From Mobula hypostoma (taxonomy: Eukaryota), in NCBI RefSeq assembly GCF_963921235.1, contig NC_086097.1:24988001-25052000 (forward strand): a stretch of DNA of 64,000 nt, read 5' to 3'. Within the stretch, counting starts at the first letter, position 1; every line of letters starts with the position of its first letter. Shown in pieces: positions 13,583 through 41,339 of this stretch. The notes below the pieces were generated by a model. That model saw only the letters and a list, made by a program, of their open reading frames with translations. It searched no databases and was not told the DNA's origin. Both the position numbers and the translations under genes were made by a program.

Positions 13583-14579
13583 CATGAGGATGCATGCCCA
13601 CCTCCCCACCTCCCCATCAAACTTTGTTTCAATCCTTTGTGGATTATAGGCTCCATCGGTAGGGGCATACAAGATGACAAAAGGGATAGATAGGGTGAAC
13701 AGCCAGAGAATTTTCCCAGGATAAAAATGGTTAATACAAAGGAGTATAATTTTAAAGTGACTGGAAGGAAGTATGGGGTGGGGTGGTTCTTTACACAGAG
13801 AGTGGTGGGTGCATAGAATGCCCTGTCAGGGATGGTGGTAGAGCAAATACATTAAGGATTTTTAAGAGACTGTTAGATGGGCATGTGGATGATAGAAAAC
13901 AAAAAGAGGGGTGGGTAGGAGCGAAAGGGTAGATTGATCTCGGAATGCGTTAAAAGTTTGGCACAACATCGCGTGTCGAAAGACTGATACTGTGCTGTAA
14001 TATTCTAAGCTCTATGATCTATGAAATTGGAGACAGGTTGATGGAAAGGGTACTTAGCACGTTGGCTTTCATCAGACAGGGCACTAATTATTGATGTTAG
14101 GATATTTTATTGTACAAGATGTAGGTAAAAGCGCACTCATCATCATCTTCAAAAGGCAATGCCTCAAAAAGCAGCATCCATCACTATGAACCCCCACCAC
14201 CAGGTCACGCCCTCCTCTCATCACTGCGAAGAGGTACGCGAGTCAGAAGACACACACTCAAAAGTTGAAGAACAAATTCTTCCCTTCCCTTCTGCCATCA
14301 GATTTCTGGATGGCCAATAAGCCCATGAGCTACCTTACTCTTTTTGCTTTCTTTTTACATTACTTACTTAATTTTATTCCCTTTTGTAATTTATAGTATA
14401 TTTTATGCATGGTTAGTATATTTTATGCATGGCACTGTACCGCTGCCAGAAAGTAACAAATGTCATGACATATGTCAATCAGAATAAGCATAATTCTAAT
14501 TCTGATTGGAGTATTGTGTTCAGCTTTGGTCATCCTGTCACAGGAACTGCACCATTAATCTGGAAAGAGTGCAAATAAG

Positions 14580-16385
14580 TGTACGGAGTCTCTTTTTTTT
14601 GTATGTTAAATTTAAAATGGCTTCTTTGTTATGTTAAATACTGAGAAAGTCTCTAGCCAGACATTTGCTTGGGTTAGTACAGACAGCAGGGTGCTATTAG
14701 CCAATGGGTGTTCGGGTATCATTTTGTTTTCAGATGATAATGCTGTCTCATATGACTGGGGACAGGGTTTTTGGGGGGAGTCGGAGGAGAGACAGGGAGG
14801 TCGGCGGACGGGGTTTTTGACGGGGAGTCGGAGGAGAGACGGGGAGGACGGTGGACGGGTTTTTGGGGGGAGTTGGAGGATAGACGGGGAGGACGGTGGA
14901 CGGGGCTTTTGGCGGGGAGTCGGAGGAGAAACGGGGAAGACGGTGGATGGGGTTTTTGGGGGGGAGTCGGAGAAGAGACGGGGAGGACGGCGGACGGGGT
15001 TTTTGGGGGGGAGTCGGAGGAGAGACGAGGAGGACGGTGGACAGGGTTTTTGGTGGGGAGTCGGAGGAGAGACGGGGAGGACGGTGGATGGGGTTTCTGG
15101 GGGTGAGTTGGAGGAGAGACGGGGAGGACGGCGGACGGGGTTTTTGGGGGGGAGTCGGAGGAGAGACGAGGAGGACGGTGGACAGGGTTTTTGGCGGGGA
15201 GTCGGAGGAGAGACGGGGAGGACGGTGGATGGGGTTTTGGGGGGGAGTCGGAGGAGAGACGGGAAGGACGGCGGACGGGGTTTTTGGGGGGAGTTGGAGG
15301 AGAGACAGGGAGGATGGCAGACGGGGTTTTTGGGGGGGAGTCGGAGGAGAGACAGGGAGTCGGAGGAGAGACGAGGAGGACAGTGGACGGGGTTTTGGGG
15401 GGAGTCGGAGGAGAGACGGAGAGGACAGTGGATGGGGTTTTTGACGGGGAGTCGGAGGAGAGACGGAGAGGACAGTGGATGGGGTTTTTGACGGGGAGTC
15501 GGAGGAGAAACGGGGAGTCAGAGGAGAGACGAGGAGGACGGTGGACAGGGTTTTGGGGGGAGTTGGAGGAGAGACAGAGAGGACGGTGGATGGGGTTTTG
15601 GGGGGAGTCGGAGTGGAGACTGGGAGTCGGAGGAGAGACAAGGAGTCGGGGGAGAGACGGGGAGACGGAGGAGAGACGGGGAGTCGGAGGAGAGACGGGG
15701 AGACGGAGGAGAGACGGGGAGTCAGTGGAGAGACGGGGAGTCGGAGGAGAGACGGGGAGTCGGGGGAGAGACGGGGAGACGGAGGAGAGACGGGGAGTCG
15801 GAGGAGAGACGGGGAGACGGAGGAGAGACGGGGAGTCAGTGGAGAGACGGGGAGTCGGAGGAGAGACGGGGAGTCGGGGGAGAGACGGGGAGTCGGGGAA
15901 GAGACGGGGAGTCGGAGGAGAGATGGGGAGACGGAGGAGATACGGGGAGTCGGTGGAGAGAGACGGGGAGTCGGTGGAGAGAGACGGGGAGTCGGTGGAG
16001 GGACGGGGAGGACGGCGGATGTGCGGAAAGGCTCCGGTTGATCACTTCAGGTGGTCCCGAGCTGTGAGTTGACAGGATCCAGGTGGTCGTCAGGAATCGA
16101 TTGGGCTCCAACGGTTGCACACGAAGAACTTGGACTTTGATAAGTCTGGCGCTTTTTTTTCCCCATTACTTCCTTCTCTGTATCGCACTGATATTAATTT
16201 CATAGACTTAGTAATATCTATAAAGTGTACTTGGTAAAACGTACTGTGTGTGCTGGCTGATGATTGATGCTTGTGATTGATTCAGGTGGCAGTGGTACAG
16301 CAACCAACCCAGCAGGAAGCGTTCAGGCCGGTGCTGGGCGGGATTTCCCCAAGGCATATACGAGCCAATATAGCTGAGTGTTACA
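14580..16385. mobile_element. Solo LTR (about 1.8 kb) inserted in a CR1 fragment
   Basis: TGTAC...TTACA ends with 4-bp TSD TAAG (14576-14579, 16386-16389). Removing it restores the CR1 peptide ERVQIRFMRTLPG. Confidence 0.75.
14758..16015. repeat. G/purine-rich VNTR inside the solo LTR
   Basis: About 45-bp units (GGGGAGTCGGAGGAGAGACGGGGAGGACGGTGGACGGGGTTTTT) give way to about 19-bp units (GGGGAGTCGGAGGAGAGAC). Confidence 0.95.
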
Positions 16386-17973
16386 TAAGATTCATGAGAA
16401 CGCTGCCAGGATTTGATGGCCTGAGTTACACAGAGAGGTTGGGAGGACTAGGACTGTAATCACTGAAACATGGGGCACTGAGAGGTGACCTTACAGAGGT
16501 GTATAAAATTACAAGGGTACAAATAGGGTAAATGCAGTCAATCCCATGAGAAAAGAACTGTCAGGAACCAAGGGAACTAATTCTTGGCCTGCCCAACTTC
16601 TTCCTATAGCTCAGGCACCGAAGTCCTGACAACATTCCCATAAGCAATCGACATTTCAGACTGATGAAGGGTACTGGCCCTAAACCTCAACCACTTATTC
16701 ATTTCCATAGATGCTGCCTGACCAGCTGAGTTCCTCCAACATTATTGCTCTGGATTTCCGGTATCTGCAGAAAATTGTGTGTTGAACATCTCACAATTCT
16801 GTTTTGCACTCCTCTCAGCTTAATGACATCTTTCCTATATCAGGGTTACCAAAATAGAATACAGCACTTCAGGTGAGGCCTCAAAAACGTCTTGTACAAC
16901 TGTGACATCATATCCCAAATCCCACACTCAATATCCTGAAAGATGAAGGTGAGAGTGCCAAATACCTTCTCAACCCTGCAAACACCAATCGTCAAGGAAA
17001 ACCTTTTCTACAAATGTGCCCTTTTCATGTTGCAATTGTGCCCATCTCTATCACCTCCTCAGGCAGTTCTTCCCAAATACTCCCACTGTCTTTACAAAAG
17101 CCTTGCCTCATACCTGGGATAGTATACAGAGACTCTCATCAGCTCCAGTGTTTTGGAAAAGACCTGGAGAATTCTCCCCAGTTCTCTCCGGCTTCTGAAC
17201 CATAGAAAGCATTGTTTCTGGATGCATCAGGACTTGCTATGGCAACGGCTCTGCCCGTGACTACAGGAAACTGCAGAGAGTTGTGGATGCAGCTCAGCAC
17301 ATCATAGGAACCAGCCTCCTCCTTAAGGACCCTGTCTGTAGTTCCCACTGCATCAGTAAAGCAGCCAGCATAATCGAAGATCCCACCCACCCCGGGCGTC
17401 CTTTCTTCTCCCCTCTCCCATTAGGCGGAAGATACAAAAGCCTGAAAGTACATCCCACCAGGTTCAAAGACTCCCGCTGTTATCAGACTCTGGAATGGAC
17501 GTCTTGGACGATAAGATGGACTCTTAACTTCACAACCTACCTCACGATGATCTTGCCCTTCATCATTTGTCTGCACCGCACATTTTTTGGTCGGTTTTAC
17601 ACTTTATTCTGCATTGTTATCCTTTTACCTCTCAGCACTGTGTAATGATTTGATCTGTATGAACAGTGGCAAGACCGGTTTTTCATTGTATCTTGGTACA
17701 TGTGACAATAATCACCAATACTTAACCCTCAATTACCCAACCACACAAAAACAAAGACAACTTATCGGATTATTCCCCCTTGTTAGAGCCTGTAGGATTT
17801 TGCTGTGTGCGAATTGGCTAATGACAACACTTTTAAAAAATGGTTCACTAACGCAGAACCACACTGAGAGATCCTGGGGATATTGCTACATACATTGACT
17901 TTCATTACATAAGGATCATGTAATGTTGCGTCATGAATTGATAGAGAGCACGGCAGGTGAGTTACAAGATCTT

Positions 17974-17979
17974 TTTATT
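17974..17979 (-). promoter_or_regulatory. Candidate polyadenylation signal of the DIO2-like gene
   Basis: AATAAA on the minus strand about 135 nt downstream of the SECIS. Confidence 0.6.
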
Positions 17980-18111
17980 ACAATGCCCATCAAAGTACAC
18001 TCGGCAATAGCACCACAAATCGATTTCATGCATATAAATATATAAACAAGTAAAACTAACTTCAGCCAGTCAACGTATTTCACTCAGAGTGGGAGAACTG
18101 AGGGCAGGGAT

Positions 18112-18182
18112 GGGCTTCTTTCTCTTCCAACAACTGACAGAGTGGTGAACTCATTCTTCAGTCGCCTTCATTCTGTGAGCCC
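18112..18182 (-). promoter_or_regulatory. SECIS element (form 2) in the 3'UTR of the DIO2-like gene
   Basis: Minus strand: GGGCT CACAGA ATGA A GGCGACTGA AG AA T GAGT TCACC ACTC TG TCAGTTGTT GGAA GAGAAAGA AGCCC. AUGA/GA quartet, 9-bp helix II (GGCGACUGA:UCAGUUGUU), unpaired AA 12 nt after AUGA, apical minihelix GAGU/ACUC, helix I GGGCU/AGCCC. Confidence 0.88.
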
Positions 18183-19586
18183 GGCTCCAGCCCACAGCCC
18201 CCTCCACTCATGCTTAAACCAAACAGAACGTGTGCAACTCAGTAACTTAAAAGAGAGGCTCACCTTAGACATGAACCTGCAGATGGGGGCAACGTACAGC
18301 AATAAAAGAGAAACTTAAGACACTGGTGAGGTGGGAACATTTTGCACCTCATGAAAAGAATACATTTACCACATTAAAAACTAAAATAGGGAATGCAATG
18401 ATGTTCAAAACCTGTGTCAGGTTTATTATATAATTAAGTCTATGTTCAGAACAAAAATATTGACATTCAGCTCAACTTGTTCTGGTATTTTCCACTTTCA
18501 AAGCAATCTTCTGTGAGATTATTTGGAAATAGTTTCGTCTGACTTGCATTAAATTTTATTGATGCATGGTTCAGTATCAGCTGAGGACAGTTATACAAAG
18601 GCTGATTATCTAACGCCCAGAGAAAGGGTCTCGACCCGAAACAGCAATTGTCCATTTCCCTTCACAGAATCTGCCTGATCCACTGAGCTCCTCCTGTATC
18701 TGTGTGTGTGACTTCCGTGACCCCATTCCTTCAACACCCACCCCCAGCCCAGGAGGGGAGCTGCCTTCTTGGACTGCCACAGTCTCTTTGGTGACGATGC
18801 TCTCATGTTGCTGATGGTGGGGAAGGAATGGAGTGAAGAGGGGTAGGGGGGAGCTCCAGGAATTAGAGACCCAGCAATGTATTTCCAAATCAGGATGGTG
18901 GGCAACTCTTAGGGAGAGGGGTGTCAGTGAAGCCTGGAGATGGAAAGCTGCAGAGGGCTGACTTCTCAGCCAGCTCCCTCACAGGCCTGTTATCATGCTG
19001 TGGCTCTAAATAAAACAGGCACAATGCTCCCCACAATCGAGGACATCTCCAAACGATGCAATGCCTCAAGAAAGCTGCATCCATCATTGAGGACGTCACC
19101 TCCCAGCACACGCCCTTGTCTCATTGCAACCGTCAGAGAGGAGGTGCAGGAGCCCCGACATTTGAGGAATGGCTTTCTCCCCTCTGCTATCATATTTTGA
19201 AACAGTCAAAATCACTTATTATCACTGATGTATCTTGAAATTGGCTGTTTTGCAGCAGAAGTATAGTGCAAGACATTTAAAAAGTTACAATGGAAATATA
19301 TTTTTAAAAAATCAATAATGCTTGCAAAAACAGAGCAAAAGAGTGAGATAGCATGCAAGAGCCCACGAACCCACTATTCTGCTCTCTTTTCACATTTCAT
19401 TTATATTTAATATTTTTTATTGTAACGTAGTTTTTTTTTAAGCGTTGCACTGTACTGCCACAAAGCAACAAATGTCATGACAGATGACAGTGATTTTTAT
19501 TCTGATTCAGATTCCTTCCTTTCCCCCCTCTGTACGGCCAGCTGCCCTTGGCATCACCACCCACCCCTCCACCCCTCCCTCCCTCC

Positions 19587-20339
19587 TTACTGCTTGTCCC
19601 CTCGGCGCCGCTCCAGCCAGCTCCTAACCCCAGCCAGGCTGTAGTAAAGGGGTCCCATCCCTCCGAGGTGTGCCACCCTGCCATCCTGCACAACGCAGAA
19701 GCGCTCAAAGGCCACGCCGTAGGCCTGGCTGGCCCCATCCTCCATGGAGTCAGCCACCACCCGGCACCAGGGGTCCAGCCGGAAATGGCGCAGGAGGAGG
19801 GAGGCGGCTGCGAGGCGCTCGGCCAGTGACCGGTGTCGCGGCAGCTGGAAGGGCGAGGAGGCAGCCCAGCCGTCGGAGGGGTGGGCCTCCCCAATGTAGA
19901 CCACCAGGAAGTCCGCCGCTCCGGCGTACTCCTCGGCCAGCCGGCAGAAGTCGGGCAGGGTGCCCACGAAGGGGGGTCACGTGGCCGAGCCGAAGTTGAC
20001 CACCAGTGGGCGGCCCGGACTGGCCAGGTCCAGCAGCCGGCAGCAGGACCCCCCGCCCTCCGTGCCCACCTGCACCACTCGCGAGTTGGGGGCTGCTCCG
20101 CCCTGCTTCACCTGCTTGCGTGCATCCAGCTGGAAACAGTGCCAAACCGAGCGCAGGCCCGGCAGGGTCAGCATCCTCTGGCCCCCGGCCCGGCCTGAAG
20201 ACAGGCCAAAGCCACTCAGCAGGCCCACTACCTGCTTAATGAGCTGCACTGAGTCATAGGCGGCCAGGAACAGGCAGTTGGAGAAGAACCCGGGCAGGAT
20301 CTGCAGGCCGATCAAGAGGTCCACACTTAACAAGCCCAT
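19587..20339 (-). CDS. dio2: Type II iodothyronine deiodinase-like selenoprotein, 250 aa, single coding exon, Sec121 encoded by TGA at 19979-19977
   Basis: ORFs 19977-20339 and 19587-19967 are in one frame, joined by TGA-CCC-CCC-TTC. N-terminal TM segment MGLLSVDLLIGLQILPGFFSNCLFLAAYDS; active centre RPLVVNFGSAT-U-PPF (Ala at -2 as in DIO2); DFLVVYIGEAHPSDGW; YGVAFER. Kozak ACCATGG, TAA stop, SECIS downstream. Orthologue versus paralogue is unresolved. Confidence 0.95.
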
Positions 20340-20444
20340 GGTGTTGCTCCACGGAGATTAGCCGGCTTGCCTCAAAGTTTTTGTGGAAGTTGCTCTCTCC
20401 CTCTCTCTTCCACTCTCTCCGGTCTCCTCCAGCTCTTCTCCACT

Positions 20445-20465
20445 CTACTCGTTCATCCACTCCAT
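20445..20465 (-). promoter_or_regulatory. Upstream ORF (MEWMNE*) in the putative 5'UTR
   Basis: ATG GAG TGG ATG AAC GAG TAG holds the only ATGs I found between the TATA box and the main start. Confidence 0.6.
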
Positions 20466-20807
20466 GAGTCAGGATAGCGAGACGAATCCACCTTCCTGAA
20501 TCCCCTCTGTCTCCTGAAGCCACGCTCTCCCAAAGCTGCTGTGTTGCTCGAATCCACTTTCTCCCTCCCTCTCGAAGGCGCTCTTTCTCGCTTGAATCTG
20601 CGCGCTCTCTTGATTCGACGCTCTCTCTGCCTCTGACCAATGGAGATGCAGGCAAGGGGAGGGAAGGAGGACTGAGGCAGGTCCTACCAACCCCCTGCAG
20701 AGGTTTAACCCGGCCAACTTCGGTCTCACGTGCACTCGCCGGCCCTCCCAGTCACAGCTCTGTTGTCACTCGCTGTGGCTCTGCACCGACAGCAGGTTGA
20801 GCCGACC

Positions 20808-20897
20808 TTATATACCCAGCTGCTGCCAATTACTGTGACTCCACAGAGCAGGGCTAATCTCTACTGAAGATTGTGACGTAGGTGGCTGGCTGAGTCA
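20808..20897 (-). promoter_or_regulatory. Proximal promoter: TATA box (20808-20814), CRE-like site (20874-20881), AP-1 site (20891-20897)
   Basis: Minus strand has TGACTCA ... CTACGTCA ... TATATAA. CRE-to-TATA spacing of about 60 nt matches the known DIO2 layout (CRE near -90). TSS inferred near 20783. Confidence 0.7.
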
Positions 20898-23652
20898 GGA
20901 AAGTTTGCCCAGTGCTGGAAAAAAGAGCCCGTGCTTTGTAAAACAAACAGATTATGCTGTTGCTCCCCAGACTGAGTTGATGCAGCATTTTGCGCTAGGA
21001 AGCGGTAAAAATAGGCTGGGAATCAGCTTTATTATCGCTGACATATGTGGTGATATTTGTTCCTCTGTGGCAGCTGTACAGTCGCAATGGATAAAGTATC
21101 TGATAACTACAACAAAAATTAAGTACTGCAAAGATAGTAAGATAATGTTGATGAGTTCTTGGACTATTTGGAAGGAGGAGAAGCTGGGTGGTGGCTGTCC
21201 TAAATGGTGAATGCTGCCTTTTTGAGGATGTTTGTCCTCAATGCTGGAGAGGGTAGTGTCCCCATGATGGAGCTGGCTGAGTTTACAACCCTCTGTAGCT
21301 TTTTCCATTCTTTTCCCGCAGCAGTACAGCGCAAAGACATAAAATTATTGTAAGTTACTAAATAAATAAATAGTGCAGAAAGAAAGGAATAACAAGGTAG
21401 TGCCCATGGACCATTCAGAAACCTGATAACAGAGGGGAAAAAAGCTGTTCCTGAATCGCAGTGGTGTGTTGGTCTTCAGGCTCCTGGGCTGCCTCTGTGG
21501 TGATACTAACGAGAAGAGGGCATGTGTGGGGGTCTTTAGTGATGGATGATATCTTCTCGAAGCACTGCCTCGATAGTCAGGAGGACTAGTGGCCATGATG
21601 GAATCTACAACTCCAGTAGCCTCTTGTGATGTGATCCTGGGCACTGTGAGACTATACACCAGGCAGCGATGCATCCACTCAGAACTCCCTCCACTGTTCA
21701 TTGGTAGAAATCAAACCTTGTTGAAATACCAAGGATTCACGGATCAATTTAAATCTCAATTTTGCATTTCTATAGCCCCACTTGGGATGTGACATCCCAC
21801 TCCAGCTGGCCTGCAGACACTGGCTGGAATGCAGAGGCACCAGTCACACAAGCCCACACAAACAGCTACACAGTCCTGACTTGTAGCATAGAACGTAACA
21901 GTTCAGTACAGGTGCTTCAGCTGCAATGCTGTGCCAAACTTTTAACCTGCTTTAGTATCAATCTAACCTTCCTTCCTACAAAGCCCTCCATTTTTTCTAT
22001 AATCCATGTGCCTGTTATTTAAGAGATTCTAAAATGCCCCTAATATATCTGACTCTTCCACCACACCTGGCAGGGCATTCCACAGGCCCACCACAAAAAC
22101 CTACTTCTGACATCTCCCCTTTACTTTCCTCCAATCACCTTAAAATTATGCCACCCTGGGAAAATGCCTCTAGCTGCCCAGTCAATCTATTTTTTGCACT
22201 ACCTTACTTTCCATTTTTCTATTTTCTATTTATGATTTATGATTTAAATTTTTATATTTACTAATTTTTACTATTTTTAATATTTAATATTTGTAATCCA
22301 GGGAGTGGGAAGCGCAGAATCAAATATTGCTGTGATGATTGTAGGTTCTAGTACCAACTGTTTGGTGACAATAAAGTATAAAGTATAGAAGTATGTCTCT
22401 TATCATCTTGTACACCTCTATTGTCAGCTCTTATCCTCCTTTGCTGTAGCTTGCTCAGCCTATCCTCATTAGACATGCTCTCTAATCCAGGTGTTAGCAT
22501 GATGCTATTGCAATTCCAGGTGTTCCGTAGTTCGGAATTCAATTCCAGTGCCATTCTGTGAGGAATCTCTGTACGTCCTCCCCATGGAATGCATGCATTT
22601 TCCCTGGGCGCTCCCGTTTCCTCCCACAGTCCAAAGCCATACTAGGTAGGTTAACTGGTCATTGTGAAGATTTTAGCATTTTCACATAAGCAACACTTCG
22701 GCCCAGGGGAAAGGAGGAGTTCCAAGACATACACGCAGAAGTTATTAAGCCCCGGTGATATATTTTCAAATCAGGGTGTCGTTAAACTTGGAAGGGAGTC
22801 AAGAGTAGGTGGATTTCCCTAGTGTCTGCTGCCTTTGTCCTTCTTGCTGGTGAAGGCCATAGATTTGGTAAGTCCTGTGGGAGTAATCCAGACTAGTAAA
22901 TGCCAATTCTGTTGATGCACGCAGTATTGTGAGGAGGGGCCTCAATGTACAGGATCAGAAAGAGCTGCTGTAAACTCAGCCAGCCCCATCATGGACACTA
23001 ACCTCCGTACCATCGAGGACATCTTCAAATATGATGCCTTAAAAAGGCAAAATCCTTTATTAAGGACCCCCATCACTCAGGATGCCCTCTTACCATTAGG
23101 GAGGGGGGACAGGACAAAGAAGACACCCATTCAATGTTTTAAGAACAGCTTCTTCCCCTCTGCCATCAGATTTCTGGAAGGATCACAAACCCATGAACAT
23201 GACCTCACTAATATTGCTCCCTTTTGGCACTACTTAATTATTTTTATATAAATTTCTTATCGTGATTTGTAGTATATTTAATGTATTGCACTATATATAT
23301 TATCGCTGACATATGTCATGAAATTTTGCAGCAAAACAATGAATTTCACAACACACAGTACATCAGCTGGTAATAAACCTGACTCTGAACGGGACATGTC
23401 TGGCATCTGACATCCACTATGGCCATTGTGTAAGCTTAGAATCGCTGCATATGCAAGACCACCAGCAAGGGCACTCGATCTCCATCTCACCAAGAGCACC
23501 CAAATTCTGAGAAATCAGTTATTTTTCAAAGTTCAAAGTAAATTTATTATCAAAGTACGCATACAATATACATATACTGCCCTTAGATTAGCTTTCTTGC
23601 AGGCATTCAAGGTAGAAAAAAGTAGAACAATAGATTCAATGAAAACCTGCGT

Positions 23653-23688
<36 letters not shown>

Positions 23689-26133
23689 TGACAAACAACC
23701 AATATGCAAAAGAAGACAATCTGTGCAAATACAAAAAAGTAAAAGTGATATATAATATTGAGAACATAAGTTATAGAGTCCTTGAAAGTACTCTATGGAG
23801 TGCTTTCTCCATAGAGACTCGACGGAGTAGTAGGATTCTATGGAGTCCTTTGTGGAATTGGTTCAGTGTTGAGGTGAGTGAAGTTATCCACTCTGGTTCT
23901 GCAGTCGGATGGTTGTAGGGTAACAACAGCCCCTGAACCTTGTGGTGTGGGACCCAAGGCTCCTGTACCTCCTTCCCAATGGCAGTGAGAAGAGAGCATG
24001 GATGGTGAGATGTTTTGATGATGGATCCCACCTTCTTGTGGCAGTGCTCCTTGCAGATGTGCTCAATGGTGGGGAGGGTTTTCCCTGTGATGGACCCAGA
24101 TGTTACACCACTTTCCGTAGAGTCCTAGAAAAAGTACAGCACAGAAACAGGCCCTTTGGCCCATCTAGTCCATGCCAAACTATTTAAACCGCCTACTCCC
24201 ATCAACCTGCACCGGGACCATAGCCCTCCATATGCTTACCATTCATATACCTATCCAAACTTCTCTTAAACATTGAAATTGAATTTGCATGCACCACTTG
24301 CGCTGGGACCTCACTTCACACTCTCATAGCCCTCTGAGTGAAGAAGTTTCCCCTTAAACTTTTCACCTTTCACCCTTAAACCATGACCTCTGGTTGTAGT
24401 CCCACCCAACCTCAGTGGAAAAAACCTACTTTCATTTACCCTATTTGTACCCCTTCTAAGTTCTGCTATGTTCCAAGGAATAAAGTCCTAACTTATTCAA
24501 TATTTCCTTATAAATCAGGTCTTCCAGACTCATCAACATCCTTGTAATTTTTCTCTGTACTCTTTCAACCGTATTTACATCTATCCTGTAGGTAGGTGAC
24601 CAAAACGGCCACAATTAGGCCTCACCAATGTCTTGTACAACTTCAACATAACACCCATTTATTATGCTCATTGCTTTGATTTATGAAGGCCAATGTGCCA
24701 AAAGCTTTCTTTACAACCCTATCTACCTGTGACCTTTCCTTCTTGTGTATTGGTGTTTCCATACCATGCAGCAATACACCTTTATAGCATTACTCTTGTT
24801 CCAGGAACTGGGTGTTCTCAGTTAGTCCTACCCTGTTCCAACGATTACAGCAAACACACCAAAGAGTTTTTTCTCTGAAATACATTGAGTAATAACACTT
24901 TATTTTTTCAGTCTGCTGGTTTATAGAAGGCTTTCATCATCTCAGTGGTGTCATATTGAATTCCCTTGGCAGAACTTCAAGCCATCGATCGTGCTCTTTT
25001 AAATACACATTACGACCCGTTCCAACATGTGTCCATTGGGAGCAACATTATCTTGCAGCGACTACAGTACCTACAACCCGTTGCTTTCATTTTTACTGAA
25101 GCCTTGTAAGTCACAGAGTTCACCAATCCCTCCATCTGTGTGCCAGCTGCAGAGACTACGAACACACAAGTGCAGTGGATCAGAATCAGATTATTATCGC
25201 CAATTTATATGATGTGAATTTTTTTTGCATTGTGACAGCAAAGTTCAAAGTAAACTCATTATGAAAGTACAAATATATCACCATATACTACCTTGATATT
25301 CATTTTCTTGCGGGCATTTACAGGAAAATAAAGAAATGCAATAGAATTTAATACATACATGTCTTATGAGGAAGGTTGAGTGAGGTAGGACTTTCCCCTT
25401 TGGAGTGGAGGAGGATGAGGGGTAACTTAAAATGGTCTCACGATAATAAGAGGCATAGATCAAATGAACAGCCAGAGACATTTTCCCTAGGATGGAAATG
25501 GCTAATATGAGGGGTCATCATTTTAAGGTGTTTGGAGGGAAGTATAGATGTCAGAGGCACGTTGTTTCTTTGCAGAGAGTGGTGGGTGCGTGGAGCACCC
25601 AGGGCAGATATATTAAGGGTATCTAAGAAACACTTAAGAAAGGCATATGGATGATTCAATTCCCGCCACTGTCCTTAAGGAGTTTTTAAATTTTCCCTGT
25701 GACCACATGGGTTTCCTCCCAAATTCCAAGTTCGTAAGTTGCAGGCATGCTAATGTAAACTAGAGAAGTGTGGGGACATTCGCAGGCTGCCCCCAGCACA
25801 ACCTCAGTCTGTGTTGGTCATTGACACAAAAACAACGCATTTCACATTGTGTTTTATGTACATTTCAATGTTGACACAACTGCATTTATTGATCTTGAAT
25901 GTAAAAGGTTTTGCACTGTTTAATAGAGTCGTAGAACACTACAACACAGAAAGCAACTCTCGGACCACCAAGTTCGTGCCGAAATATTATTCTGCATAGT
26001 CCTGCACCAAACCCTCCCATCCATGTATTTACCCAAACCTCTTAAATGTTGAAATCGATCCCACGTCCACTAATTCCATTGACAGCTTGTTCCACACACC
26101 TCAGTGACGTTCCCTCTCACATTCCCCTTAAAT

Positions 26134-29100
26134 GGCGAATCGGCCTGGACAGACAGGAACAGCAGGGCTCTCACAGCCAACAGTACCATCTAACCGTTTA
26201 AAAAGTTCATCAGTTTGGCGCAGTAAGTGGGTGAGTAGACTTATTTTTCCTGTTTCATTCCTGTAGAATTAGATAGCATGCCTGCAGGGTTAGTGCTTTG
26301 TTCAGGGTGTCAGATGTGGGAATCCTGGGAGACCTCCAGCCTCCCTGATGGCCACATCTGTGCCAGGTGCACCGAGATGCAGCTCCTCAAAGACCGTGTT
26401 AGGGGTCTGGAGCTGCAACTTGATGACCTACTGCTTATCAGGGAAAGTGAAGAGGTGATAGACAGGAGCTACAGGGTGGTAATCATCCCTAGGCTACAGG
26501 GGTCAGATAATTGGGTGACTGTCAGGAGAGGGAAGGAAATGCCCAGATAGTGGAGAGCACACCTGTGGCTGTCCCCCTCAGCAACAAATATCTTGTTCTG
26601 GATGCTGTGGAGGGGGTTGATCTGACAGGGGACGCCCACGGTGACCGGGTCTCTGGCACTGAGCCTGGTGCTGTTGTGCAGGAGGGGAGGAGGGAGAAGA
26701 GGAATGCGGTAGTCATAGGGGATTCCATAGTCAGGGGAACAGACAGGAGATTCTGTGAGCCTGATGGAGATACCTGCATGGTGTGTTGCCTCCCAGATGC
26801 CAGGATACGGGGTGTCTTGGATCAGGTCCAGAATATTCTGAAGGGAGAGGGCGAGCAGCCAGTTGTCTTGGTACATGTTGGTACCAATGACATAGATAGG
26901 ATAAGGGAGGAGGTCCTGAAGAGAGATTTCTGGGAGTTAGGAAGGAAGTTGAGAAGCAGGACCTCCAGGGTAGTATTCTCGGGATTGCTACCTGTGCCAC
27001 GTGCTAGCGAGGGCAAGAATAGTAGGATCAGGTAGATGAATGGTGGCTGAGAGACTGGTGCAGGGGGCAGGGCTTCAGATTCTTGGATAATTGGGATCTC
27101 TTCTGGGGGAAGTATGACCCGTTCAAAATGAACAGGTTACACCTGAACCCGAAGGGGACCAATATCCTGGCGGGAAGGTTTAATAGAGCTGTTAGGAAGG
27201 GTTTAAACTAATTTGGCAGGGGGATGGGAAACGGAATGATGGAGTGGAGGAAGGGGAAAACAGAAATAAATCTAAGATAGTGAGCAGTAAAGATGTCAGG
27301 AAAAACAGGCAGGTGATGGGGCAAATTTGTAGCCATTGGAATGAGTTGCAGTGCAATAAAGTTGCAGTGAAATCAAAGCAAAAAGTACCAAATACTGGTC
27401 TTAAGGTGTTATACTTAAATGCACGCAGCATAAGGAACAAGGTGGATGATCTTTGTCGTACAGCTACAGATTGGCAGGTATGATATTGCGGCCATCACTG
27501 AGACGTGGCTAAAGGATGCATGTCTCTGGGAGCTGAACGTCCAAGGATACACGGTGTATCAGAAGGATAGGAAGGTAGGCACAGGGGGAGTTGTGGCTTC
27601 ATTGGTAAGAAATGATATTAAATCATTAGAAAGAGGTGATATAGGATCGGAAGGTACAGAATCTTTATGGGTTGAGCTAAGAAATAGCAGGGGTAAAAGG
27701 ACCCTAACGGCAGTTATATACAGGCCTCCAAACAGCTGCAGTAATGTAGACTACAAATTACAACAGGGAATAGAAAAGGCTTGTCAGAAGGGCAGTGTTA
27801 TGATAATTGTGGGGGATTTTAACATGCGAGTGGATTGGGAAAATTAGGTTGGCACTAGATCTCAAGAGAGAGAATTTGTAGAATGTCCGCGAGATGGCTT
27901 TTTAGAACAGCTTGTTGTTGAGCCCACTAGGGGATTGGCTGTACTGGATTGGATATTGTGTAATGAACCGGAGGTGATTAGAGAGATTGAGGTGAAGGAA
28001 CCCTTAGGAGGCAGTGATCATAACATGATTGAGTTCACTGTGAAATTAGAAAAAGAGAAGCCGAAATCTGATGTGTCAGTATTTCAGTGGAGTAAAGAAA
28101 ATTACAGTGGCATGAGAGAGGAACTGACCAAAGTTGACTGGAAAGGGACATTGGCGGGAAGGATGGCAGAGCAGCAGTGGCTGGAGTTTATGCCAGAAGT
28201 GAGGAAGGTGCAAGACAGGTATATTCCAAAAAAGAAGAAATTTTCAAATGGAAAAAGGATGCAACTGTGGCTGACAAGAGAAGTCAAAGCCAAAGTTAAA
28301 GCAAAGGAGAGGGCATACAAGGAAGCAAAAATTAGTGGGAAGACAGAGGATTGGGAAGTTTTTAAAAGCTTACAAAAGGAAACTAAGAAGGTCATTAAGA
28401 GGGAAAATATAAACTATGAAAGGAAGCTAGCAAATAATATCAAAGAGGATACTAAAATCTTTTTCAAGTATATAAAGAGTAAAAGACAGGTGAGAGTAGA
28501 TATAGGACCGATAGAAAATGATGCTGGAGAAATTGTAATGGGAGATAAGGAGATGACAGAGGAACTGAAGGAGTATTTTGCAACAATCTTCACTGAGGAA
28601 GACATCAGCAGTATACCGGACACTCAAGGGTGACAGGGAAGAGAAGTGTGTGCAGTCACAATTACGACAGAGAAAGTACTCAGGAAGCTGAATAGTCTAA
28701 AGGTAGATAAATCTCCCCGACCAGATGGAATGCACCCTCGTGTTCTGAAGGAAGTAGCTGTGGAGATTGTGGAGACATTAGCGATGATCTTTCAAAAGTT
28801 GATAGATTCTGATATGGTTTTGGAGGACTGGAAAATTGCAAATGTCACTCCGCTATTTAAGAAGGGGGCAAGGAAGCAAAAAGGAAATTATAGACCTGTT
28901 AGCTTGACATCGATGGTTGGGAAGTTGTTGGAGTCGATTGTCAAGGATGAGGTTACAGAGTACCTGGAGGCATATGACAAGATAGGCAGAACTCAGCATG
29001 GATTCCTTAAAGGAAAATCCTGCATGACAAACCTGTTACAATTTTTTGAGGAAATTACCAGTAGGCTAGACAAGGGAGATGCAGTGGATGTTGTATATTT

Positions 29101-30276
29101 GGATTTTCAGAAGGCCTTTGACAAGGTGCCACACATGAGGCTACTTAACAAGATAAGAGCCCATGTAATTATGGGAAAGTTACATACGTGGATAGAGCGT
29201 TGGCTGATTGGCAGGAAACGGAGAGTGGGAATAAAGGGATCCTAGTCTGGTTGGCTGCTGGTTACCAGTGGTGTTGGGGCAGTTTCTTTTTACATTGTAC
29301 ATCAACGATTTGGATTATGGAATAGATGGCTTTGTGGCTAAGTTTGCTGACGATACGAAGATAGGTGGAGAGGCTGGAGGTGCTGAGGAAACAGAGAGTC
29401 TGCAGAGAGACTTGGATAGATTGGAAGAATGGGCAAAGAAGTGGCAAATGAAATACAATGTTGGAAAGTGTATGGTTATGCACTTTGGCAGAAGAAATAA
29501 ACGGGCAGACTATTATCTAAATGGGGAGAGAATTCAAAGTTCTGAGATGCAACGGGACTTGGGAGTCCTCGTACAGGATACCCTTAAGATTAACCTCCAG
29601 GTTGAGTCGGTGGTGAAGAAGGCGAATGCAATGTTGGCATTCATTTCTAGAGGAATAGAGTATAGGAGCAGGGATGTGATGTTGAGGTTCTATAAGGTGC
29701 TGGTGAGACCTCACTTGGAGTACTGTGGGCAGTTTTGGTCTCTTTATTTAAGAAAGAATGTGCTGACGTTGGAGAGAGTACAGAGAAGATTCACTAGAAT
29801 GATTCTGGGAATGAGAGGGTTAACATATGAGGAACGTTTGTCCGCTCTTGGACTGTATTCCTTGGAGTTTAGAAGAATGAGGGGATACCTCATAGAAACA
29901 TTTCGAATGTTGAAAGGCATGGACAGAGTGGATGTGGCAAAGTTGTTTCCCATGATAGGGGAGTGTAGTACGAGAGGGCATGAGTTAAGGATTGAAGGAC
30001 GCCCATTCAGAACAGAGATGTGAAGACATTTTTTTAGTCAGAGGGTGGTGAATCTATGGAATTTGTTGCCACGGGCAGCAGTGGAGGGCAAGTCACTGGG
30101 TGTATTTAAGGCAGAGATTGATAGGTATCTGAGTAGCCAGGGCATCAAAGGTTATGGTGAGAAGGCGGGTGAGTGGGACTAAATGGGAGAATGGATCAGC
30201 TCATGATAAAATGGCGGTGCAGACTCAATGGGCTGAATGACCGACTTCTACTCCTTTGTCTTATGGTCTTATGGTC
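26134..30276 (+). mobile_element. Near full-length CR1 LINE (ORF1 zinc finger/SGNH esterase; ORF2 APE endonuclease-RT) with several stops and frameshifts
   Basis: ORF1 CSGC..CARC, VVIGDSIVRG, VHVGTNDI. ORF2 YLNARSIRNK, AITETWL, VGDFN, SDHN, YRPVSL, LDFQKAFDKVPH, FADDTK. 3' (TCTTATGG)n tail; possible TSD TAAAT. Confidence 0.95.
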
Positions 30277-39731: not shown

Positions 39732-41339
39732 CAGTGGCTATAAAAAGTATTCCTTTCATCCCTCTCTGGAAGTTTTCACGTTTTATTGTTTCACAACATT
39801 GAATCAGAGTAAATTTAATTTGACACTGATCAACAGAAAATAGTTTTTGTGTCAAAGTGAAAACAAATTTCTACAAGCCAGTCTAAATTTATTACAATTA
39901 TTAAACACAAAATAATTGATTGCATAATTACTCACCTCCTTCAAGTCAGTATTTAGTAGATGCACCTTTGGCAGCAATTACAGCTGTGTGGTTATGTCTT
40001 TATCAGCTTTGGACATCTGGACACTGCAATTTTTTCCCATTCTTCCTTACAAACTACTCAAGCTCTGTCAGATTGCATGGGGATCGTGAGTGAACAGCTC
40101 TTTTCAAGTCTAACCACAAATTCTCAATGGGATTGAGGTCTGGACTCTGACTTGGCCACTCCAGGATATTAACTTTGTTGTTTTTAAGCCATTCCTGTGT
40201 AGCTTTGGCTTTATGCTTGGGGCCATTGTATTGTTGGAAAAGAAATCTTCTCCCAAGTTGTAGTTTTCTTGCAGACTGCATCAGGTTTTCCCCAGGATTT
40301 CCCTGTACTTTGCTGCATTCATTTTACCCTCTACCTTCACAACCCTTCCAGGACCTGCTGCAGTGAAACAACCCCACAGCATGATGCAGCCACCACCGTG
40401 CTTGACCATAGTGATAGTGTATTTTTGATAATGTATGGTGTTCAGCTTATGCCATACATAGCGTTTAGACTGATAGACAAAACGCTCAATTTTGGTTTCA
40501 TCAGACCCTAAAACCTTCTTCCAGCTGACTTCAGTGTCTCTCACATGCCTTCTTGCAAACTCTAGCCAAGATTTCATTGAAGATTTTCTCAACAGTAGCT
40601 TTCTCTTCATCACTGTCCCATAAAGCTGTGACTGGTGAAGCACCCGGGCAACAGTTTTTATATGGGCAGTTTCTCCCAAGTCAGCCACTGAAGCTTGTAA
40701 CTCCTCCAGAGTTGTCATAGGTCTCTTGGTGGCCTCCTTCAATAGTCCCCTTCCTGCACAATCACTCAGCTTTTGAGGACAGCCTGCTCTAGACAGATTT
40801 ACAGCTGTGCCATATTCTTTCCATTTCTTGATGATTGACTTAACTGTACTCCAAGGGATATTCAGTGACAGAAATTTTATTGTATCTATCTCCTGACTTG
40901 TACGTTTTAATAACCTGTTTTACAGAGATGCTTTTATCTTCATGGTGTAGTTTTGACAAGGATACTGACTCACCAGCAGTTGGACCTTCCAGATACAGGT
41001 GTATTTTTACTACAGTCAATGGAAGCACCTTGCCTGTACACAGGTGATCTCCATTTAACTAATTATGTGACTACTAAGACCAATTGGTTGCACCAGTGAT
41101 GATTTGGTGTGTTATACTAAAGGGGGTGAATACTCATGCAATCAATTATTTTGTGTTTTATATTTGTAATTAATTTACATCACTTTGTAGATATCCGTTT
41201 TCACTTTGACACAAGAGAGTCTTTTTCTGTTGATCAGGGTCAAAAAGAGCCAAATTAAATCCACTGTGATTCATTGTTGTAAAACAATAAAACATGAAAA
41301 CTTCTGGGGGAGGGGGGCAAATACTTTTCATAGGCACTG
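39732..41339 (-). mobile_element. Full-length Tc1 DNA transposon with long TIRs; transposase is a pseudogene (about 40943-39946)
   Basis: TA-CAGTG...CACTG-TA ends with about 200-bp imperfect TIRs. Motifs [30 protein letters not shown] (catalytic D replaced by Y) and [11 protein letters not shown]. Frameshifted. Confidence 0.93.

Follow-up and report, generated by a model that had tools for sequence, protein, structure and literature searches.

A single-exon DIO2-type deiodinase gene

The window analysed here, a stretch of 64,000 nucleotides of Mobula hypostoma DNA, carries on its minus strand a DIO2-type deiodinase coding sequence (CDS) that runs in a single exon of 250 codons over 19587 to 20339 and ends in a TAA stop. 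The predicted protein matched Pfam T4_deiodinase at 272 bits, with 236 of 237 positions covered. Its best matches were DIO2 proteins, the ten best of them at 51 to 58% identity, and mouse Dio2 scored higher against it than Dio3 did (192.6 versus 161.4 bits). The frame contains a UGA at codon 121 (19977 to 19979, minus strand), within the motif SAT-U-PPF, that aligns with the catalytic position of mouse Dio2 (PDB 9h48). It remains open for 129 codons past this UGA, and neither a frameshift nor any other stop was found in the 250 codons. The GC content of the CDS is 68%, reaching 84% at third codon positions.

All the proton-relay residues are kept (S118, T120, Y148, E151, H153 and H169), corresponding to Ser127, Thr129, Tyr157, Glu160, His162 and His182 of mouse Dio2, and so are the counterparts of Pro131-Pro132, Cys205 and Phe224-Glu225-Arg226; the proton relay and the substrate floor of Dio2 are defined in PMC11592359. 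The window protein shares with mouse Dio2 a DIO2-type N terminus, the SAT-U-PP motif, the proton-relay residues, the distal Cys and the Val-Ala-Phe-Glu-Arg substrate floor. An unusual residue is G150 (codon near 19890, minus strand) in the motif Y-I-x-E-A-H: glycine was found there in 1 of the 189 motif-bearing homologs, and DIO2 has Asp or Glu at this place.

Assembled contigs that we presume to derive from RNA covered the locus, in a comparison that included no DNA run. Contigs of four runs, which come from three studies and represent three organisms, covered the CDS, and those of three of the runs, X1, X3 and X4, also covered the stretch with the SECIS. The X1 contigs (17958-19558 and 19591-20775) showed no differences from the window, the X3 contigs spanned 18106-19567 and 19597-20775, and the X4 contigs (17990-18689, 18808-19127 and 19607-20762) differed from the window at 46 positions. 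Contig depth in X1 was about 100 on the gene versus 1 to 7 outside repeats and gene, and it was similar on the CDS and SECIS parts (105 and 96). None of the contigs listed bridged the CDS and the 3' untranslated region (3'UTR), the gap (19559-19590 in X1, 19568-19596 in X3) falling on a G-rich run of 30 nt that follows the stop codon, so that a single mRNA with both CDS and SECIS is what we infer.

The 5'UTR measures at least 436 nt (20340 to 20775, minus strand), close to the reported mammalian Dio2 mean of 409 nt; the ends of the contigs, at 20775 for X1 and X3 and at 20762 for X4, give a weak hint of where it starts. It contains an upstream open reading frame of six codons (20445 to 20465), in frame with the CDS and with a second ATG at 20456. 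A TATA-like box (20808 to 20814) begins 39 nt ahead of 20775, where the X1 and X3 contigs end, and a partial CRE (ACGTCA, 20874 to 20879), which we regard as a candidate, lies 104 nt upstream of 20775, both on the minus strand. The herring DIO2 promoter has full CREs (PMC8233318); for the mammalian DIO2 promoter, we found no CRE or TATA positions in the open literature.

A form-2 SECIS hairpin in the presumed 3'UTR

The 3'UTR extends over about 1.63 kb (17958 to 19586, minus strand), as delimited by the X1, X3 and X4 contigs, and at 1.6 kb differs from that of mammalian DIO2, with its reported mean of 5.2 kb. Within it, at 18112 to 18182 on the minus strand, folding and the strict SECISearch pattern identified a form-2 SECIS composed of helix I, an internal loop, the quartet, helix II, an apical AA and helix III. 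The core spans 18171-18125. Its 5' side consists of AUGA and the fourth quartet base (18167 to 18171) and its 3' side of G-GA-A (18125 to 18128), which fits KGAW, in line with the UGAN/KGAW consensus (PMC3753652). The quartet, UGAA at 18170-18167 and GGAA at 18128-18125, offers tandem G.A/A.G and was unpaired in the Watson-Crick ensemble. Helix II has nine base pairs (18166-18158 with 18137-18129), six Watson-Crick and three G.U, and no bulge; its pair probabilities were 0.93 to 1.0 in the folding ensemble. The apical AA (18154 to 18155) showed unpaired probabilities of 0.64 and 0.98. Helix III, the minihelix that makes the SECIS form 2 (18140 to 18152; 18152-18149 with 18143-18140), was present in both the minimum free energy (MFE) and the centroid structures, and helix I pairs 18182-18178 with 18116-18112. 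The two structures agreed, and pair probabilities were the same when 443 nt of context were folded.

A sequence-only reading of this DNA had proposed a form-2 SECIS for the UGA of an upstream deiodinase gene, and the fold, the pattern and the open reading frame support that proposal. Its parse of the core is identical, letter for letter, to minus strand 18171-18125; the AA lies at 18155-18154, the predicted 12 nt past AUGA; the GAGU/ACUC minihelix folds as four base pairs with a 5-nt loop at a probability of about 0.6; and the stop codon and the core, put about 1.4 kb apart, are separated by 1416 nt. From the UGA to the core there are 1806 nt, which falls inside the reported mammalian range of 207 to 5207 nt.

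We re-implemented the SECISearch patterns from the supplement of PMC3753652 and ran them on both strands of the window. The strict pattern matched seven times, the SECIS being the most stable of the seven (-12.1 kcal/mol) and the sole match in 17900-19586; it was fitted with p2 = 11, the apical AA following after an 11- to 13-nt helix II strand as the pattern prescribes. The SECISearch3 filter, as given in the same supplement, admits a helix II of 7 to 15 bp, a bend of at most 2, an apical part of 8 to 30 nt and an energy below -4. Checked by hand and with our own script, the SECIS lies within these limits, with 9 bp, 20 nt between the strands and -12.1 kcal/mol for the upper stem, and by hand it satisfies three of the four SECISearch3 grading points, the fourth being the Covels score. 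Among 2,000 dinucleotide shuffles of 17900-19586, 187 contained some strict match, 35 combined a folded helix II with a free AA, and 14 of these 35 had an energy of -7.4 or lower; none equalled the observed SECIS, where the thresholds for being as good were taken from that SECIS itself. Folding energy alone was modest, with z scores of -1.8 (71-mer) and -3.3 (18080-18215).

The sequence-only reading had also named a covariance-model search as a check and held that the lack of a match would refute the element. No SECIS family was found by Rfam 15 cmscan at the gathering threshold or at an E value of 10 or below, in the whole window, in 17800-19600 or in 18060-18230. We give this result little weight and do not take it as a refutation, since even the dedicated SECISearch3 Infernal model finds 74 to 91% of true SECIS elements (PMC3753652, Table 1). 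The weak Rfam matches that did appear (MIR8562, mir-3192 and others) scored far under their gathering thresholds and were dismissed as chance.

The seven strict matches in the window, the blank Rfam result and the z score of only -1.8 for the 71-mer could be read to mean that the hairpin itself fits a loose pattern by chance, with the true SECIS elsewhere or absent. However, it is the only strict match in the presumably transcribed 3'UTR, is followed 133 nt later by the distal AATAAA, and was approached by 14 of the 2,000 shuffles at the moderate standard and by none at the observed one. Moreover, a UGA at the Sec position, such as lies upstream of this hairpin, requires a SECIS. We see next to no chance that the match is accidental. 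The hairpin is a genuine and ordinary SECIS of a kind already known, and it is very probably functional.

Like other eukaryotic form-2 (type II) SECIS elements, it has a UGAN/KGAW quartet, 11 to 13 nt to an apical AA, a probable 3'UTR location, a helix II without bend and a third helix. Unlike them, it has no Rfam match, the first two pairs of its helix II, those next to the quartet, are G.U, and helix I is extended by an unusually long flanking stem (18080-18215, minus strand), the stretch whose z score against shuffles was -3.3. The human DIO2 SECIS is classed as form 2 (PMC3328465, Table 1), and the window gene resembles bony-vertebrate DIO2 in having a form-2 SECIS, probably within a long 3'UTR, and a long 5'UTR.

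Transcript ends, repeats and selection on the coding sequence

The X1 3'UTR contig ends at 17958, close to the transcript end near 17955 that had been anticipated from the sequence. Since 17958 lies 16 nt past the AATAAA at 17979-17974 (minus strand), this contig end, beyond which 25 further letters fall outside the alignment, likely carries a poly(A) tail, and the distal signal is probably the one used. No genomic A tract follows 17958.

Five proximal AATAAA or ATTAAA signals (19501, 19421, 19411, 18560 and 18427, minus strand) all lie between the stop codon and the SECIS, in a 3'UTR that had been described as invaded by repeats. That description held: four fragments of it match repeats elsewhere in the window. 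One, at 18617 to 18695, contains an 18-nt motif with eight matches in the window versus 0.03 expected and gave tblastx matches; we take it to be a Penelope-type end. A second, at 18943 to 19152 on the plus strand and therefore antisense to the gene, is a decayed LINE coding fragment, presumably Rex1-like, whose translation contains stops and which matched 14144-14221, 23003-23067 and 24018-24088 by blastn. The remaining two, at 19216-19275 and 19386-19509, are repeat-tail fragments that accompany the proximal signals at 19501, 19421 and 19411. Direct and inverted repeats in 17900-20950 were judged to be chance.

With five such signals, some of them brought in by repeats, many transcripts might be cleaved before a genuine SECIS, leaving its inclusion partial or regulated and giving a truncated product of 120 residues. 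The 3'UTR contigs of X1 and X3 nevertheless each pass through all five signals as single contigs, although contigs cannot reveal minor ends, and we regard frequent early cleavage as improbable. In X3, the summed contig depth climbs toward the 3' end over 18027-18187 (62, 800 and 7345), as in a 3'-biased library, and is a poor measure.

The sequence-only reading had called the SECIS the best evidence that the gene is under selection, which overstates the case: recent retropseudogenes also pass SECIS searches (PMC3753652), so that a SECIS alone is no proof of selection. Judged by its sequence, the coding region, with its Sec-position UGA, the 129 codons that stay open past it and an excess of synonymous changes, is the better evidence. 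The X3 comparison rests on the differences listed, which number 17 of 23 in the contig with CDS and 5'UTR and 21 of 31 in the one with the 3'UTR. Among those listed, seven fall in the CDS, five synonymous and two non-synonymous (V195A and G52R), which gives a pN/pS of 0.14 (binomial p = 0.017). The CDS, with 7 listed differences per 743 nt, is less divergent than the 3'UTR contig, with 31 per 1462. The UGA is absent from the listed differences, and the sole listed difference within the SECIS, at 18174, affects the internal loop, which is unpaired. The glycine at codon 150 is retained in X3 despite a synonymous change.

Intronless selenoprotein-like genes are mostly pseudogenes according to PMC13134290, and G150 and M228 are unusual substitutions, as might be expected if the locus were a transcribed pseudogene in which the UGA terminates translation and only a relic of a SECIS is left. 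Against this stand the 250 intact codons at 51 to 58% identity to the ten best matches, the intact catalytic network, and the five synonymous versus two non-synonymous differences and lower CDS divergence in X3. Neither disablements nor a genomic poly(A) tract, by which a processed retrocopy would be recognised, were found. We consider a pseudogene very improbable.

In X4, contig 30 continues past 19607 for 173 letters that fall outside the alignment, so that the C-terminal tail and the proximal 3'UTR appear to differ in this relative; the distal 700 nt, including the SECIS, align at 93%.

Probable orthology, the absent intron and the ubiquitination lysines

A search with the N-terminal half retrieved DIO2-type proteins of Chiloscyllium punctatum, Scyliorhinus torazame and Rhincodon typus as well as a Logan cluster (69% identity). 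In the N-half tree, a single clade (98/98) united the window protein with the Logan protein and the three sharks. In the full-length tree, which included two of the three sharks and eight rows of half length, the window protein paired with the Logan protein (96/91), this pair joined the two sharks (84/80), and these four proteins were sister to bony-vertebrate DIO2 in a joint clade supported at 98/97. A topology with the elasmobranch proteins beside DIO3 was not rejected by an AU test (p = 0.084), and a tree built from the C-half alone gave no resolution between DIO2 and DIO3. The gene resembles DIO3 in its single exon (PMC3316567), its short loop D and its form-2 SECIS, the class of the human DIO3 element (PMC3328465). 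It differs from DIO3 in its DIO2-type N terminus, its SAT motif lacking the proximal Cys, its higher Dio2 score and its place with DIO2 in the best tree.

Each shark species yielded a single DIO2-type protein, and a survey that includes nine cartilaginous-fish assemblies describes no DIO2 duplication among them, its reported duplicates being solely those of salmonids and lampreys (PMC13134290). Because the tree has the shape of the species tree, each shark has a single DIO2-type protein and the survey reports no chondrichthyan duplicates, the window gene is read most simply, on sequence grounds, as the elasmobranch ortholog of DIO2 rather than as an extra paralog.

A functional SECIS would equally suit an extra DIO2 paralog, retro-derived or an ohnolog, with a canonical two-exon DIO2 elsewhere in the genome. 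Such an origin would account for the intronless CDS, the long branch and the DIO3-like C-terminal half with its short loop D and no ubiquitination lysines, and it has precedents in SEPHS2b, which arose by retrotransposition, and in lamprey DIO2c, which falls outside all other DIO2 (PMC13134290). The species-tree shape of the elasmobranch clade and the lack of duplicates in our searches and in the survey argue against it, as do the TATA box and partial CRE directly upstream and a 5'UTR whose length is near the mammalian mean; the missing genomic poly(A) tract past the cleavage site also counts against it, weakly for an old copy. The window gene is like SEPHS2b, a placental retrogene that replaced its parent, in being an intronless selenoprotein gene with a SECIS, one that is functional in SEPHS2b, but within this window it shows no sign of having moved to a new locus and has a TATA box and partial CRE upstream. 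We hold a paralog to be unlikely.

Our preferred reading, which we consider probable, is that this hairpin serves as the working form-2 SECIS for an elasmobranch DIO2 ortholog, a transcribed single-exon selenoprotein gene. Its mRNA would span from about 20780 to about 17958. Following established SECIS biology, the G.A/A.G quartet would form a kink-turn that binds SBP2, and SBP2, together with eEFSec and Sec-tRNA, would recode UGA121 as selenocysteine. The ribosome would then continue to the TAA at 19587, giving a deiodinase of 250 residues. Repeats appear to have been inserted between the stop codon and the SECIS, leaving the SECIS itself intact. The SECIS confirms an ordinary selenoprotein gene of a type cut short at the UGA by automatic annotation, as happened to two of the shark DIO2-type records, named 'hypothetical protein'. 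More notable than the SECIS is the gene, a single-exon DIO2 lacking the lysines, which is probably present in public annotations but unremarked.

Unlike bony-vertebrate DIO2, the window gene has no intron at KQ|V. The corresponding position, 20111 to 20112 on the minus strand, lies within a continuous open reading frame in genomic DNA; with CAG-GTG at the junction, the context of a proto-splice site is intact. Among 215 DIO2-type N-halves, 74 diverge straight after KQ|V, as expected of exon-1 read-through open reading frames. The residue preceding the junction is Q in 208 of the 215 and the motif is missing from one; the other six, all without Q, comprise the three shark proteins and the three Logan cluster members. 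This non-Q residue in all six suggests from sequence that the splice constraint at KQ|V is absent throughout elasmobranchs. Among vertebrate selenoprotein genes, PMC3316567 found a single exon in Dio3 and SPS2b alone, and the window gene is an exception to that statement. In the literature searched, mainly open access, we found no intronless or lysine-lacking DIO2 of a cartilaginous fish, although the intron figure or trees of PMC13134290 may already show the intronless state. Filters that call intronless selenoprotein predictions likely pseudogenes, as in PMC13134290, could mislabel such genes.

Mammalian DIO2 is ubiquitinated through K234 and K241 after turnover (PMC11592359), and for one of these two lysines a further role has been proposed, that of placing the substrate correctly for outer-ring deiodination. 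In contrast to mouse Dio2, the window protein has Arg221 and Met228 in place of K234 and K241 (mouse numbering; codons within 19679-19656, minus strand), a shorter loop D and only four lysines in total, none of them in residues 79-248. Both ubiquitination lysines are kept in 90 of the 92 other DIO2-type C-terminal halves, the remaining two having R/K. Their replacement is known from the window gene and X3 alone, and none of the 361 proteins retrieved was a shark C-terminal half. Two DIO2 sequences of the eel group, P0013 and P0027, carry Arg in place of the first of these lysines. In the window protein, loop D is 10 residues long, versus 14 in 77 of the 89 other DIO2-type sequences. The region of the destruction loop also has 10 residues, a length shared among 102 sequences only with gars; a short destruction loop was consequently discarded as a unique feature, the gar DIO2 sequences P0057, P0269 and P0300 being of the same length. 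High GC content may lie behind part of these oddities.

Since DIO3, the sister paralog, is also intronless, elasmobranch DIO2, if single-exon and without the ubiquitin off-switch in general, could preserve a state in which the ubiquitination lysines, the intron and the longer loop D had yet to be gained by bony vertebrates, a proposal that we put forward tentatively and regard as rather doubtful. The alternative is a lineage-specific loss, possibly aided by GC drift. If the ancestral reading were true, substrate-triggered destruction of DIO2 would be an invention of bony vertebrates, and the enzyme of rays and sharks would be a natural stable or multi-turnover DIO2, possibly with altered ring selectivity. 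A DIO2 that lacks these lysines offers a natural test of the need for them and can also serve in dating the intron and the ubiquitin switch.

Elsewhere in the window, a tandem repeat array (14612-16072) is GC-skewed and produces long spurious open reading frames on both strands. A long broken LINE occupies 26511-30023 on the plus strand, its first open reading frame giving weak OSK/GDSL-like matches under the cut-off, and a fragment of a Tc1/Sleeping Beauty-like transposase lies at 40281-40919 on the minus strand, with matches to Pfam HTH_Tnp_Tc3_2 and HTH_SB.
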